From Thermofilaceae archaeon (GTDB taxonomy: Archaea; Thermoproteota; Thermoprotei; Thermofilales; Thermofilaceae), in contig JANXEW010000004.1 of assembly GCA_025057995.1 (NCBI GenBank), positions 24,801 to 88,800 of the forward strand: a stretch of 64,000 bases of DNA, in the 5' to 3' direction. Numbering within the stretch: the first letter of the stretch is position 1; each line of letters starts with the position of its first letter. The notes below the pieces were generated by a model. That model did not search any database. It saw only the letters and a list, made by a program, of their open reading frames with translations, and had not been told where the DNA came from. The position numbers were made by a program, and so were the translations under genes. This document shows, piece after piece, positions 2,098-51,829 of this stretch.

Positions 2098-2250
2098 AAA
2101 ATCTTTAGCGTTTCTCATCCGTGTAAGTTTCGTCCAGCCGATCGTCTTTTAGCGCTCCTCGACTCCCCTGCATAGGGCCTAGTCTACTCTCCCGATGCAG
2201 TGGAGCCTCGACCGTGACCGTTTTTAACGGGCTTCACGCGAGACTTCCTG

Positions 2251-3672
2251 ATGAAGCTGCCGCGAGTAGCTGTAGCCGCTATGCTCGCGTTATTCTCCGT
2301 AGCGCTACTGACTGCGTACTGGCACTTGAGGAGGGAACGGGCTAGGCAGCTTAACGTCAACACCTCTGCTGGAGTTAGGAGGTTGAGCGTCACTTTAAGC
2401 TTCAGTGGACGAGTAAGGGTAGCGGTTAAACCGTTAGACCTTCCGCAGACTCACGTTCCCTCAACTGTTGAGAAGGAAAAGACCGTTGAGGTAGAGTGTG
2501 ATGGTCTCTGCTCTGTAGAAGTCGAAGTGGTCGGCGGCAGGGGTTACACCGTACTCGTAAGTTGGGAAGGTGGGGAGAAGTCCTTCACGGTGCCTTACGT
2601 GAGGGAGTTTGACGACCTAGCTTCGAAACTCGTTGAGGAAGGTGTAGTGGTTAGCGCCGCATACATGCCTTGGAGTATGGGGGAAGTCTTGGGCGCTAGC
2701 TGGCGTAGAGATGTGCCGCTTCTAGGCTTGTACGACGCGTTAGACGATTATATTCAGTGGAAGCACGTCGACTGGGCGCGGGGGCACGGTATACACTTGT
2801 TTTGGGTGGACTGGACTATGTACGCGAGTTCAAAGGCTGGCGACAGGATATTCAAGGTCACGCAAAAGCTGTTGGAGAAGGAGATGGTTGTAGGAGTTAT
2901 GCTTGGTCCTCAGGTAGACATGCATTGGGGACCCGGCTACCCTTCTATAGACTTAAGCGACGATTGGAACGCTGGTATTTTTCTGAACTTGGTTCAGAGA
3001 GCTTTAACGCTGATGAAGGATCCAAACTACTACAGGGTTGGTGAACGTCCTGCTATCCTTATCTGGAACGAGGCTGCCTTCTACAACAGGGAATCCGTCT
3101 ACAAGAGGATGCGGGAGATGGTTGTGAGAGAACTAGGCGTGGAGCCTTACGTGATCACTGACGTTCTCCCAAGAGTTGGGAAGGGTGGGGTTTTAACACC
3201 GGGGACTCCAGAAGGTAGATGGTATGTTGACAATGTTCTTCTAAGGCGTGGAGACGGTGGGGACAAGTACATCGACGCGTATACCTCCTGGATTGGTTTC
3301 TACACGGTTCAGGGTTCAGGAGCTTTGACCAGCGGGGAGATGGAGCTATTTCCTGAAACGTATAAGCGGCATCTCGATTCGTGGAGGCTGTTTGCTCGCG
3401 CGAGGGGAAAGTGCGTTGTTCCCACTGTAAGCCCCGGCTTCGATAGAACTCACGACCCTGTTTTCGGTCAACCCGAACCCATCCCTCGAGACGTGGGGCG
3501 ATTTAAGGCTATGTTAGAAGCGTCTCTCGCTAACGTCGGGGAATGCGGTGAAGTGAGGGTGGATACGTGGAACGACTTCTATGAAGGTACGTACGTTGAA
3601 CCATCGTTAAATGAAGGTCTACTCTATTTAGAAGCGATTAGAGACGTTGCACGACGTCTTAACGGGAGCTGA
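2251..3672 (+). CDS. membrane-anchored glycoside hydrolase, GH99-like (endo-alpha-mannosidase-like) TIM barrel
   Basis: N-terminal TM helix (VAVAAMLALFSVALLTAYW). The C-terminal segment VSPGFDRTHD...VDTWNDFYEGTYVEPS resembles the xFNEWHEGTxIEP signature of GH99-type enzymes. The family call is from motif memory only. Confidence 0.45.
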   Translation: MKLPRVAVAAMLALFSVALLTAYWHLRRERARQLNVNTSAGVRRLSVTLSFSGRVRVAVKPLDLPQTHVPSTVEKEKTVEVECDGLCSVEVEVVGGRGYTVLVSWEGGEKSFTVPYVREFDDLASKLVEEGVVVSAAYMPWSMGEVLGASWRRDVPLLGLYDALDDYIQWKHVDWARGHGIHLFWVDWTMYASSKAGDRIFKVTQKLLEKEMVVGVMLGPQVDMHWGPGYPSIDLSDDWNAGIFLNLVQRALTLMKDPNYYRVGERPAILIWNEAAFYNRESVYKRMREMVVRELGVEPYVITDVLPRVGKGGVLTPGTPEGRWYVDNVLLRRGDGGDKYIDAYTSWIGFYTVQGSGALTSGEMELFPETYKRHLDSWRLFARARGKCVVPTVSPGFDRTHDPVFGQPEPIPRDVGRFKAMLEASLANVGECGEVRVDTWNDFYEGTYVEPSLNEGLLYLEAIRDVARRLNGS

Positions 3673-3742: not shown

Positions 3743-4702
3743 ATGGGTAGGTTAACCTTACCTTTGTTACCTCTAGTACTGCTGTTAGCGGCTTCAGTAC
3801 TAGCTCAGACTCCGACACCTCTAGTCTTGAACGTTAACAGGGATCTTAAGATAATAGTCTCGTACCCACTTGAAGTTAAGTACAGTAGCTGGGTTAGAGT
3901 AGTCTTTGACGTAACTTCGATCACCAACGTCACCGTAGACAAGTTTGCAGTCAGGTTGGTCCTAGTGCACGATAGAGGTTCTGTAACGCTCTACGAAGCT
4001 TTAATTATTCAATCCAAGGCTATGGCTCAAGGCAGTCAAGTGCAACGGGTAATCGAGTTTCAAGCATCTATACCCGCTCCTAGGCCTCCAGCAGACCCGT
4101 TCCTTGAACTCCACTTGATCGTCAACTACTCTGTCGGCGGTGTAGTTAAGTTCCTAGAGTATAAGGCTCCGATAACCATCGTTCCTCCGGCAACCTATAG
4201 CGAGTTGCAGGCAGCCTTGAGTGAGGCGAGGCAGAAAGCTGAGCTTGCAGACCAACTGGCGAAGCAAGTGAAAACCCTCGAGATCAAGTTGGCTAACGAG
4301 AGTGGAAAGTGCGCTGTGATAAGCGAACAGTTGAAGGGTTTGAGCAGCGAATGGAATCTCCTTAAGGAGAAGGTTGGCGCTCTACAAGCTGAGAACATCG
4401 CTCTAAAGAACCGTATCTCGGAGCTAGAGGAGGAGAACTCTGCACTTAGGATCGAGATATCCTCTCTGAGAGAGGAGAAAGGTGGTCTTTCATCTAGGTT
4501 AACGAGCGTCCAAGACAGTTATGCCGCTCTAGAAGCTGAGTTAAACTCTCTAAAGCAGAAGTACGAGAGCGTTTTAGCTGAAGCGTCAACTCTTAAGGTA
4601 GCTCTCGCTGTAGCAGCCTCGACAGTCGTCGCTCTCATAGTATTACTAGTTCTTCAAAAGAAGGCGGCTCCGAGACCTCTACCCCCACCGCCGCCGCCCT
4701 AA
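3743..4702 (+). CDS. SlaB-like architecture protein: signal peptide, beta-rich ectodomain, long coiled coil, C-terminal TM anchor, polyproline tail
   Basis: Signal peptide MGRLTLPLLPLVLLLAASVLAQ. Heptad-rich stretch of about 130 aa (e.g. LKNRISELEEENSALRIEISSLREEK). TM helix LAVAASTVVALIVLLVL, followed by KKAAPRPLPPPPPP and the stop. Confidence 0.7.
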   Translation: MGRLTLPLLPLVLLLAASVLAQTPTPLVLNVNRDLKIIVSYPLEVKYSSWVRVVFDVTSITNVTVDKFAVRLVLVHDRGSVTLYEALIIQSKAMAQGSQVQRVIEFQASIPAPRPPADPFLELHLIVNYSVGGVVKFLEYKAPITIVPPATYSELQAALSEARQKAELADQLAKQVKTLEIKLANESGKCAVISEQLKGLSSEWNLLKEKVGALQAENIALKNRISELEEENSALRIEISSLREEKGGLSSRLTSVQDSYAALEAELNSLKQKYESVLAEASTLKVALAVAASTVVALIVLLVLQKKAAPRPLPPPPPP

Positions 4703-49657: not shown

Positions 49658-50482
49658 ATGAGTTCACCGCGCAACCCTATGAGGAGTTTAATTTTGCTCT
49701 TGACAGGGCTGCTGCTTGTTCACTTGGTATTGTGTGAACCTTTCCCAGTATCGCTTATGGTTGATGCCAGCGTAAAGAGTCCGGCCGGCCCCCTCACCTA
49801 CCGTGTCACTGTGACGGCGTCGAGACAGGTGGATGTCAGAGTCAGGGCTAGCGTCATCCCGCCGAGTGGCGACCAGAGCACCTGGAAGACGTTGTGGGAG
49901 GGGCGACTTGAGAGGGGGGAAACGAAAATCCTTGAGGCTAGTGAAGAGACGCCCCCGAGACTTGGCAGCTACGTCGTATGGGTTGCTGTCGATTTCGTAA
50001 GCGCTCAAGATTATATGGTCGTCAACGGGAGAATGTACTACGCAACGTACGATGTGGTACACGTTCTAACAGTCTACGAGCCGAGCGTGGAACGTTGGAG
50101 GACACTGTACCTACAAGCCTTAAACGAAAGTGAAAGATACAAGCTCCTCTACGCTAACGCCTCCAATGAGATTAACGTTTTACTCCAGAAGTGTAAAGCG
50201 CTAGAGGAGGAGGCAGCGAGACTAAAGGTTAATCTCTCAAGCTTGAAGACATCTTATGACCAACTTTACGCTGAGTGCTCTACGGTTAAAGAGGAGAGGA
50301 ACACGTTGAGACAGTTGCTCGAGAGGAGGGAGACCGATGCTAGAAGACTAACCGTCTTGTTGATCATGCTCGCGTCTCTTTCTCTCATCCTGGGCGGCGC
50401 GCTCGTAGCGTTAACGCTAAGTTGTAGGAAAGCCGCAACGAGGGAGAGGATTCCCCCGCCACCTCCGCCTCCTCCAGGCTAG
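49658..50482 (+). CDS. second SlaB-like architecture protein: signal peptide, beta-rich ectodomain, coiled coil, TM anchor, polyproline tail
   Basis: Signal/anchor LILLLTGLLLVHLVLC. Coiled coil LQKCKALEEEAARLKVNLSSLKTSYDQLYAE. TM helix LTVLLIMLASLSLILGGALVALTL, then RKAATRERIPPPPPPPPG and the stop. Confidence 0.7.
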   Translation: MSSPRNPMRSLILLLTGLLLVHLVLCEPFPVSLMVDASVKSPAGPLTYRVTVTASRQVDVRVRASVIPPSGDQSTWKTLWEGRLERGETKILEASEETPPRLGSYVVWVAVDFVSAQDYMVVNGRMYYATYDVVHVLTVYEPSVERWRTLYLQALNESERYKLLYANASNEINVLLQKCKALEEEAARLKVNLSSLKTSYDQLYAECSTVKEERNTLRQLLERRETDARRLTVLLIMLASLSLILGGALVALTLSCRKAATRERIPPPPPPPPG

Positions 50483-50549
50483 ACTCCATAAACCCTTAGG
50501 TTTTTTCTCTAGCTTATATCGCGAGAGAGAGGTTAAGGGTCGTGCGGAT

Positions 50550-50640
50550 TTCGAACCACCGCTCGAGACCAGGTGCGTTCCTCACACTGGTTACCTCGGG
50601 GTTATGAGCCCCGCGGGATACCTGGCTTCCCCACCCCGCT
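50550..50640 (-). other. tRNA-iMet 5' segment (positions 1-59) including the intron
   Basis: Starts with AGCGGGG at 50640 and ends with GGTGGTTCGAA at 50550. Confidence 0.8.
50562..50592 (-). other. 31-nt non-canonical tRNA intron in the variable loop (between positions 47 and 48)
   Basis: BHB geometry: CGAG/CTCG 4-bp helix, 3-nt bulges GTA and AGC, intron helix ACCA/TGGT continuing into GTGTG/CGCAC. Removal leaves the 5-nt variable loop AGGTC. Confidence 0.75.
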
Positions 50641-50645
50641 TTGAA

Positions 50646-50662
50646 TGGTAGCGGGGGGTGGA
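50646..50662 (-). other. tRNA-iMet 3' segment (positions 60-76: T, CCACC, CCCCGCT, ACCA)
   Basis: TCCACCCCCCGCTACCA lies 5' of the tRNA's own position 1 in the transcript. Confidence 0.8.
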
Positions 50663-50747
50663 TGCTCGTCCGCACGACCCCGGAGAGGTGCATCCACACC
50701 CCCGGTTTAAGCTTTTCGTTCTATACTACAGCTTAGCTTAAGATTAC

Positions 50748-50772
50748 CGCACCAAGTGAACTAGTTGGTGCG
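50748..50772 (-). terminator. 8-bp-stem hairpin between the aldo/keto reductase stop and the tRNA locus
   Basis: CGCACCAA-N9-TTGGTGCG. The role as a terminator or insulator is a guess. Confidence 0.2.
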
Positions 50773-50806
50773 AAAGCCGGTTTCTTTTAACTCGAACGGG
50801 TCTCTG

Positions 50807-51829
50807 TTATAACGTGGGGGGCGGTATATGAAGTATCGGCTTCGGTTTATACGGCTCCTCCAGGTACTTCGCTTCGTCGTTTGAGAGCTTTATGTTGAGA
50901 GCCTCTACAGCTTCTTCCAAGTGCTCGACCTTACTTGTGCCGATTATCGCTACGTCAATGCCCTTATAGAATAACCAAGCTAACGCGATTTGAGAAGGTT
51001 TAACTCCTTTCCGCTCAGCTATCTCGATGACTCTCCGAACTATCTCAGCGTTCTCAGGAGGCTCCACGTAAGCTTTGTAAGCGTAAAACTCTGCAGCGGT
51101 TAGACGCCCAGGTCCATCCGGTGGCACGACTATTTTCCCATCCTTGTAAAACCTTCCGCTTAGGACGCCTGCCGCTAGAGGGCTGTAAACCATGTAAGCG
51201 ATACCATGCGCCTTACAGAAGGGTATCATCTCCCTCTCCTCCTCCCTGTAGAGAAGATTATAAGGGGTCTGCGTACTTACAAACTTCTCGTAACCCTTAA
51301 ACTCGGCGATGTAGTAAGCCTTAGCGAACTGCCACGCGTACATGCTTGACGCCCCTATGTACCTCACGTTACCTTTGTGTACGAGATCTGTAAGCGTCTT
51401 AAGCGTCTCCTCGATAGGTGTCTCGTAATCCCATCTGTGTATTTGGTATAAATCAATGTAGTCAGTCCTAAGTCTTTTCAACGACTCGTTTACCTGTCTC
51501 ATTATATGCTTCCTTGATAAACCTCTATCGTTGGGACCCTGACCCGTGGGGAAGTAGACCTTTGTGGCAACCACGGCATCATCCCTTCTCCCCTGCAGGA
51601 ATTCGCCGAGAATCTCTTCAGACTTGCCCCTAGAGTATACGTTAGCTGTATCGAAGAAGTTTATGCCCAAGTCCCAAGCTCTCTCCATCACTTTGAAGGC
51701 TTCCTCTCTGCCAACCACCCATCCACCGGTTCCAAAGACCTGTAGAGAAGGGTCTCCAAAAGACATGCACCCTATACATATCCTCGAGACCTTGAGACCA
51801 GACAAACCTAGGCGGACGTAGTTCATCAC
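50807..51829 (-). CDS. aldo/keto reductase
   Basis: LGLSGLKVSRICIGCMSFG, FFDTANVY, LYQIHRWD, and IGASS blocks. Confidence 0.9.
   Translation of the reverse strand: MMNYVRLGLSGLKVSRICIGCMSFGDPSLQVFGTGGWVVGREEAFKVMERAWDLGINFFDTANVYSRGKSEEILGEFLQGRRDDAVVATKVYFPTGQGPNDRGLSRKHIMRQVNESLKRLRTDYIDLYQIHRWDYETPIEETLKTLTDLVHKGNVRYIGASSMYAWQFAKAYYIAEFKGYEKFVSTQTPYNLLYREEEREMIPFCKAHGIAYMVYSPLAAGVLSGRFYKDGKIVVPPDGPGRLTAAEFYAYKAYVEPPENAEIVRRVIEIAERKGVKPSQIALAWLFYKGIDVAIIGTSKVEHLEEAVEALNIKLSNDEAKYLEEPYKPKPILHIPPPTL

Follow-up and report, generated by a model that had tools for sequence, protein, structure and literature searches.

The DNA considered here, a stretch of 64,000 nucleotides from a metagenome-assembled genome (MAG) of a Thermofilaceae archaeon (GCA_025057995.1, contig JANXEW010000004.1, positions 24,801 to 88,800 of the forward strand; hereafter the window, with coordinates counted from its first letter), carries on its minus strand an element of 144 nt with the make-up of a circularly permuted gene for initiator tRNA-Met (tRNA-iMet). 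The 17-nt 3' part of the tRNA, TCCACC-CCCCGCT-ACCA, is encoded ahead of the 60-nt 5' part starting with AGCGGGG, on the same strand. Reading the minus strand from 50680 to 50537 in the 5' to 3' direction, one finds a 12-nt leader, CGAG, the bulge CAT, the 3' part, TTCAA, the 5' part, the bulge AAA and a 12-nt trailer (Table 1). The order of the parts is thus permuted: T60 to A76 lie at 50662-50646 and are followed by TTCAA and then by A1 at 50640. The leader GGGTCGTGCGGA is the perfect reverse complement of the trailer TCCGCACGACCC (12/12 nt), and the 5' part is interrupted by an insert of exactly 31 nt. A preliminary description, made from the letters of this DNA, had read the locus segment by segment in the same way, and every piece was recovered where it had been placed. 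This includes the exact pairing of the first with the last 12 nt and the CGAG/TTCG helix between the bulges CAT and AAA, which is made up of three Watson-Crick pairs and one G-U pair.

Table 1 Features of the permuted tRNA-iMet locus, listed in the direction of the minus strand (BRE, transcription factor B recognition element; BHB, bulge-helix-bulge)
Feature	Positions	Strand	Basis or remark
Putative promoter, BRE-like GAAAAG and TATA-like CTTAAA	50706..50717	-	Consensus match only; the closing helix follows about 26 nt further on
Leader, 5' strand of the 12-bp closing (outer) helix, GGGTCGTGCGGA	50669..50680	-	Complements 50537-50548; covariation between loci at each of the 12 pairs
5' strand of the 4-bp central BHB helix, CGAG	50665..50668	-	Partner TTCG (T54-G57) at 50552-50555
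5' bulge CAT, predicted cut CA↓T	50662..50664	-	T60 is the first base of the 3' part; BHB scan
tRNA 3' part, positions 60-76: T60, CCACC, CCCCGCT, discriminator A, encoded CCA	50646..50662	-	Same 17 nt upstream of the 5' part in 13 other permuted loci
Spacer TTCAA between CCA and A1	50641..50645	-	Removal after circularisation inferred
5' part exon 1, A1 to T47: acceptor 5' strand, D arm, CAT anticodon arm, variable loop AGGT	50593..50640	-	Sequence, ARAGORN, RNAalifold
31-nt non-canonical intron at 47/48, relaxed BHB	50562..50592	-	BHB scans; excision gives ortholog-type AGGTC
5' part exon 2: C48, T-stem 5' strand GGTGG, T-loop TTCGAA (54-59)	50550..50561	-	Sequence, ARAGORN, BHB scan
3' bulge AAA, predicted cut AA↓A	50549..50551	-	A58 and A59 stay on the tRNA; junction fold and BHB scan
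Trailer, 3' strand of the closing helix, TCCGCACGACCC	50537..50548	-	Pairs with the leader, covarying

The closing bulge-helix-bulge motif

The two ends of the locus were analysed with a scanner for BHB motifs that works exhaustively over all pairs of cut sites, requires 4 nt of central helix immediately 5' of every 3-nt bulge and cuts after the second nucleotide of the bulge. As a positive control, the top match in colinear relatives with canonical introns returned the exact mature sequence. Exactly two BHB motifs were found in the precursor from the window, namely one at the junction of leader and trailer and one that excises exactly the 31 nt of the insert. The junction motif (central helix 4, inner helix 5, outer helix 12) has a score of 21, which was reached by 0/500 shuffled sequences. 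Besides the 12-bp outer helix and the T stem, it comprises a central helix of 4 bp and two bulges of 3 nt, and ligation across it yields a 7-nt T-loop, TTCGAAT. In crystal structures of the splicing endonuclease with RNA, the attacking group is the 2'-OH of bulge nucleotide 2 and its target is the phosphate of nucleotide 3 (PMC12397907), in agreement with the position after the second nucleotide of each bulge at which the preliminary description had placed the cuts.

A minimal junction construct folded unprompted into the outer helix, a 3-nt bulge, the 4-bp helix, the second 3-nt bulge and the T stem. The 144-nt precursor has a minimum free energy (MFE) of -77.3 kcal/mol (z = -5.47) and none of 200 shuffled sequences was equally stable. 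The MFE structure includes the terminal helix and an acceptor stem closed by the spacer; as it does not contain the cloverleaf, it was not taken as evidence for the tRNA arms. The window holds no second perfect inverted repeat of 12 bp with this spacing, yet by itself the repeat is compatible with chance (shuffled sequences contain about 0.75 on average). The significance of the closing motif therefore lies in its combined geometry and in the covariation presented below, not in the 12-bp repeat as such.

The reconstituted tRNA and its identity

Joining ...GGTGGTTCGAA to TCCACC... and excising the 31 nt gives a sequence of 77 nt. In RNA terms, the predicted junctions are GGUGGUUCGAA↓UCCACC at 59/60 and GAGGU↓CGGUGG at 47/48. 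When presented with this rearranged product, ARAGORN returned a tRNA-Met(cat) of 77 nt folded as a cloverleaf, with exactly the stems that had been listed from the sequence beforehand. The product is identical over 77/77 positions to the spliced product of a colinear gene in a relative (locus L028), and 76/77 positions are shared with three intron-less colinear genes (L020, L022, and L025), which have A57 instead of G57. These near-identical genes were used as proxies to judge the rearranged product on the Rfam tRNA model, of which the gathering score is 29 bits. L028 scores 59.5 bits with its intron still present, while the three intron-less genes score 65.0 bits, so that the covariance-model check that had been proposed for the rearranged sequence was passed by close proxy. 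Archaeal initiator tRNAs are marked by A1:U72 together with three G:C pairs at 29-31:39-41. The product and its ARAGORN cloverleaf carry a CAU anticodon, A1:U72, and G29-31:C39-41, and these features support the view that the locus specifies a bona fide initiator tRNA-Met(CAU).

Permuted relatives and covariation of the closing helix

Scanning species-representative genomes and metagenomes of the JGI (Joint Genome Institute) with the 5' part of the tRNA yielded 27 loci; loci are designated here with the prefix L. The locus of the window itself was found in identical form in NCBI assembly GCA_026414005.1 (contig JAOAJV010000002.1) and in two Logan assemblies of separate runs. The same permuted layout is present at 13 further distinct loci, L002 (of which L027 is an identical copy), L008, L009, L011, L012, L014, L019, L016, L021, L024, L026, L029, and L031. 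These sit on MAG and metagenome contigs from many samples; one of the loci is labelled Thermofilum sp. As the source of the window is a MAG, a chimeric join made during assembly or binning might in principle mimic a permutation. As the identical locus recurs in these three assemblies and its layout at 13 other distinct loci on contigs from many samples, such an artefact has next to no credibility.

ARAGORN called the junction-joined product of every permuted locus a tRNA-Met(cat). About seven families of closing helices can be told apart. Their sequences are essentially unrelated (2-7/12 identical positions between families), yet each strand pairs with its own partner. Cognate outer strands pair at 10.9/12 positions, as opposed to 5.7/12 for non-cognate combinations. 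In a fixed-register alignment of the junctions, 95.2 % of the cells pair; a shift of the partner by 1-3 columns lowers this value to 33-44 %. All 12/12 outer pairs show changes on both sides, and 0/500 shuffles matched on any of these measures. The central helix is CGAG/TTCG in the window only, the other loci having TGAR/TTCA; judged from the alignment, this C:G pair instead of U:A is a compensated change that involves position 57 of the T-loop. RNAalifold was applied to eight full-length precursors with no structure supplied; it found the closing helix, with compensatory changes in 11/12 pairs, and also recovered the D and anticodon stems, the acceptor stem closed by the spacer, and the T stem, which brings the two ends together. 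No earlier mention of covariation support for an archaeal junction BHB was found in the literature cited here.

These data bear on the idea that the locus is a non-functional relic, i.e., what remains of a tRNA gene disrupted by a rearrangement or by an integrating mobile element, with an att-site-like repeat of the 3' end left beside a truncated 5' portion. The 3' ends of tRNA genes are common targets of integration, and partial tRNA fragments have been reported in crenarchaea (PMC3218864). A relic of this kind would not be expected to keep its closing helix by compensatory change over some seven sequence families or to restore a T-loop of exactly 7 nt through its BHB. Nor would it be expected to have a promoter-like box placed upstream of its 3' part, or a tRNA body that is invariant across loci of which the neighbouring proteins have diverged to 41-86 % identity. 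We consider a relic very improbable.

Introns

The preliminary description had left the 31-nt block in the 5' part unexplained. It is predicted here to be a second BHB intron, of the relaxed type, at position 47/48. Its motif has the central helix CGAG/CTCG, the bulges GTA and AGC, an inner helix of 5 bp, and an outer helix of 2 bp, and its BHB score of 11 is not exceptional when compared with shuffled sequences. Excision of the 31 nt restores the variable loop AGGTC of the intron-less orthologs. The possibility that the 31 nt form a long variable arm was ruled out; initiator tRNAs belong to class I and the excision restores the 5-nt loop of the ortholog.

The gene of the window has no intron at 37/38. 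Permuted relatives carry a 21-nt intron at 45/46 (L014) or a 19-nt intron at 37/38 (L016), which indicates that intron content varies among orthologous permuted genes. The scanner yielded no clean BHB motif for the approximately 53 extra nt of L029 and L031 or for the intron of L010.

Detection by standard tools and the overlapping reading frame

No tRNA was detected by ARAGORN in the 64-kb window, the native locus included, and none was found in it by Rfam at gathering score. In a permissive local Rfam scan, the locus gave a partial tRNA match of 22.7 bits, below the cut-off of 29 bits, in which the intron hairpin was mistaken for a T arm; the same permissive scan of the whole window produced no other tRNA-like match, only weak mir-103 and Ocean-VII noise. 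The expectation that a scanner for colinear genes would miss this gene was thus borne out with both tools. In the contig of L002, three ordinary tRNAs are detected by Rfam while the permuted one is missed.

The RNA is overlapped on the same strand by an open reading frame (ORF) of 61 aa (50514..50699, minus strand), which had already been noted, correctly, as spurious. A 59-aa gene is placed over the locus by the gene calls of the Logan assemblies (L006, 2118-2297; L007, 314-493), and the NCBI record has no protein gene in the gap. As the tRNA gene is invisible to ARAGORN and to Rfam at gathering score and a spurious ORF is annotated over it, MAGs of this clade may appear to lack a tRNA-iMet.

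Putative promoter region and gene neighbourhood

The TATA-like box CTTAAA (50711-50706, minus strand) is separated from A1, which lies downstream, by 71 nt. The flanks of the 14 permuted loci were scanned for such boxes, and 12 of them have one located 47-52 nt upstream of the 3' part; the exceptions are L008, with a box at -35, and L011, the short flank of which contains none. Most colinear relatives have a TATA-like box 28-39 nt upstream of A1.

An 18-nt inverted repeat with 83 % complementarity is formed by 50685-50702 and 50653-50670 of the window. The segment GGGGTGTGGATGCACCTC, located on the minus strand between the TATA-like box and the closing helix, could thereby pair with the region of the central helix, bulge, T stem, and acceptor of the 3' part; such a repeat is not evident in the other permuted loci. 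At the other end, a pyrimidine-rich CTTCTA or TTCTA, often followed by T runs, was observed shortly after the trailer or the CCA in L002, L008, L009, L011, L012, L014, L020, L022, and L026 and in the 3' half of L017. The motif may be a terminator element. In the window, the sequence CCTCTCTCTC is present downstream of the trailer in its place.

Genes next to the permuted tRNA of the window recur at two of the other permuted loci. L019 shares GH123, MFS, orf242, and orf274 with the window at 41-69 % amino acid identity, and L016 shares an aldo/keto reductase (86 %) and an ankyrin-like protein (52 %). These shared neighbours indicate that the permuted gene sits at an orthologous position in lineages that have diverged. 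Against the orientation seen in L016 and in L019, the tRNA cassette of the window, including its putative promoter, is inverted relative to orf274 and the aldo/keto reductase (49658-51829). The closing helix, the spacer, and the intron position differ between the window and L016 despite the 86 % identity of their reductases.

Other tRNA genes lie near some of the relatives. In the GGCCGTACCGCC family, an intron-containing tRNA gene of about 100 nt was observed on the opposite strand, about 100 nt downstream of the permuted tRNA-iMet, in L002 (2605-2704, plus strand), and the flanks of L009, L024, L026, and L027 are similar. The colinear tRNA-iMet of L030 (692-765, minus strand) is a variant with a G-U pair in the anticodon stem and the variable loop AGATC. 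Its neighbours, no more than about 2 kb away, are the RNA of an archaeal RNase P (156.5 bits) and a 16S rRNA gene, represented by its 5' end (2183-2491, minus strand, and 2863-3285, plus strand); they might help to place this lineage taxonomically.

Assignment and proposed maturation

The anatomy of the locus, the geometry of its BHB, its conservation by compensatory change over 13 further loci and the tRNA quality of the product as recognised by ARAGORN were all established in this analysis. They back the preliminary assignment, in which the locus is a circularly permuted gene for initiator tRNA-Met that is joined at 59/60 through a closing BHB. The locus is, in our judgement, very probably functional, encoding the archaeal initiator tRNA-Met(CAU), and an ortholog of the permuted gene of Thermofilum pendens. 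Initiator tRNA is essential; if this is the only copy in the genome, all protein synthesis would depend on the cutting and recircularising of this transcript.

From experiments in algae and from general archaeal tRNA processing we infer the following course of transcription, order of steps, circular intermediate, and enzymes. A single transcript would start from the BRE/TATA-like box at about 50706-50717 (minus strand) and run through the leader, the 3' part, the spacer, the 5' part, and the trailer. The 12-bp helix of leader and trailer, together with the CGAG/UUCG helix, the bulges CAU and AAA, and the T stem, would form an hBHBh' motif. The tRNA splicing endonuclease would cut this at CA↓U and AA↓A, after which tRNA ligase would join A59 to U60, producing the T-loop UUCGAAU in a circle of 113 nt. 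The 31-nt intron at 47/48 would be lost by way of the second, relaxed BHB. Finally, RNase P would open the circle 5' of A1 and UUCAA would be trimmed from the encoded CCA end, which would leave the 77-nt initiator tRNA.

Several points weigh against the assignment and the scheme. The circular intermediate is unproven for archaeal permuted tRNAs, that of T. pendens included (2014 review, PMC3978253), and the evidence for the function of such genes in archaea, this locus among them, is computational. A colinear tRNA-iMet copy may be present elsewhere in the genome, the scans having covered the 64-kb window and short flanks. The 5-nt spacer after the encoded CCA adds a removal step, and the promoter call is a match at the level of the consensus only. 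The single-sequence MFE structure (-77.3 kcal/mol) differs from the cloverleaf-plus-BHB structure (-69.7 kcal/mol). Lastly, the BHB of the intron is relaxed, its outer helix being no longer than 2 bp, and two pairs of the anticodon stem compete with its central helix; the structure in which this helix is formed costs about 1.5 kcal/mol more (-68.2 versus -69.7 kcal/mol).

The same functional permuted gene might be matured with no circle being made, the spacer being cut first by RNase P and 3' trimming and the BHB then being cut and ligated in trans, in the manner of split tRNAs. Split tRNA-iMet genes exist in related material (L017, see below) and in Nanoarchaeum equitans (PMC3218864), the archaeal pathway is regarded as unsettled in the review mentioned above (PMC3978253), and the two pieces could stay associated through the acceptor (7 bp), T (5 bp), and closing (12 bp) helices. 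In algae, however, the circular intermediate has been observed and the BHB is processed first (PMC3978253). Moreover, the acceptor/T-arm domain, by which RNase P and tRNase Z recognise their substrate, takes its correct form only once the T-loop has been joined. A trans-joined route thus seems unlikely, and maturation through a circle is the course preferred here for the permuted gene.

Possible origin and inheritance of the permuted gene

Colinear and split relatives of the gene were also found. L001 (4139-4237, plus strand, of JALWZH010000032.1, a Thermoproteales MAG) is a colinear gene for tRNA-iMet, interrupted precisely at 59/60 by a BHB intron of 22 nt. The intron site reads TTCA AA↓A GGGGG-cggaa-CCCCC TGGG AG↓T and the T stem is CCCGG/CCGGG. 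Such an intron at 59/60 is the precursor state predicted by the models in which permuted genes originate by tandem duplication or from circular RNA. By its sequence, L001 could plausibly be a surviving precursor state of the permutation, and it bears on the origin of permuted genes for this reason.

In L017 (Ga0180301_10000001, a 372-kb contig, minus strand; about 2186-2245 and 3990-4055 in reverse-complement coordinates), the tRNA-iMet appears split at 37/38. Its 5' part is followed by GGCGGTCGCGGCGGC. The 3' part, located about 1.8 kb downstream on the same strand, is preceded by a TATA-like box of its own and by the perfectly complementary GCCGCCGCGACCGCC. The upstream flank of L003 is almost identical to that of L017, but in L003 the gene continues colinearly. 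L017 would be either a recently split gene or one with a 1.8-kb insertion or intron.

The spacers of the permuted relatives vary from 2 to 28 nt. That of L014 and L019, CCCACA (6 nt), is the same as the first 6 nt after the CCA in the colinear genes L020 and L025; this gives a weak hint, possibly a chance one, that the spacer derives from an ancestral 3' trailer.

It was proposed in 2011 that the permuted gene of T. pendens had been acquired by recent lateral transfer (PMC3218864). The synteny of the permuted loci counts against such a recent acquisition. As a tentative proposal, which we rate as somewhat short of probable, the permuted tRNA-iMet might instead be the state inherited by a whole Thermofilum-related clade, in which it would keep a syntenic place. 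The gene's closing helix, spacer, sites of introns, and even its orientation would turn over much faster than the neighbouring protein genes, and relatives would have kept a colinear form with a 59/60 intron (L001) and a form split at 37/38 (L017). If this is true, L001, L017, and the permuted loci together make up a natural series for testing the origin of permuted genes from intron-containing ones.

Comparison with known systems

A permuted tRNA-iMet gene was described for T. pendens Hrk5 by Chan, Cozen and Lowe on the basis of computational evidence (Genome Biol 12:R38, 2011; PMC3218864). That gene has its junction at 59/60, a BHB, an encoded CCA, a single upstream promoter at -72, a spacer of 7 nt, and a canonical intron (PMC3218864). 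A permuted tRNA-Tyr(GUA) is also known from T. pendens. The preliminary description had named T. pendens as a precedent and had suggested that the gene may be an ortholog of a described case rather than a first. This is correct, as the published gene specifies the same tRNA and has the same 59/60 junction (PMC3218864), and the gene of the window matches the published one in every defining respect. The two have in common the identity of the tRNA, the 17-nt 3' part upstream of the 5' part, the T-loop junction at 59/60, the BHB, and the encoded CCA, as well as an extra intron, and a low or absent score in standard tRNA finders. The putative promoter of the window, at -71 from A1, is placed much like the published one at -72. 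By the published description, the differences are the spacer (5 nt in the window versus 7), the intron (31 nt at 47/48 versus a canonical one at 37/38), and the genome. From this comparison, the gene of the window is most likely an ortholog of the permuted tRNA-iMet of T. pendens.

In reviews of 2014, T. pendens was the only archaeon with permuted tRNA genes (PMC3978253), and no later report of others in archaea was found in the full-text literature, subscription journals being outside its coverage. With the loci collected here, the archaeal record would extend from one species to at least 14 distinct loci, the window included. The known mechanism is left unchanged by the gene of the window and by the comparative data.

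The permuted tRNA genes of algae (2007; reviewed in PMC3978253) resemble the gene of the window in their layout, the 59/60 junction, and the BHB of leader and trailer, and they are the source of the model with a circular intermediate. They differ in that they are eukaryotic and nuclear, do not encode CCA, and have unrelated tRNA sequences, and in that their processing has been shown experimentally. Maturation by way of a circular RNA was demonstrated in algae, and an archaeal endonuclease cuts an artificial permuted substrate in vitro (PMC3978253).

The colinear L001 belongs to the same family of mature tRNAs and shares with the permuted genes the T-loop strand TTCA, the bulges (AAA and AGT), and the 59/60 site; the same endonuclease and ligase would be expected to act on it. 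It has the normal order of exons, however, and the excised piece is an intron, so that neither a circular tRNA intermediate nor removal of a spacer is needed. Split tRNA genes, such as the tRNA-iMet of N. equitans, which is divided at 37/38 (PMC3218864), and L017, are likewise reassembled through a BHB from GC-rich complementary flanks. Their halves are separate transcription units, whereas in the window no more than 5 nt lie between the two parts, and the one promoter-like box observed precedes the 3' part.

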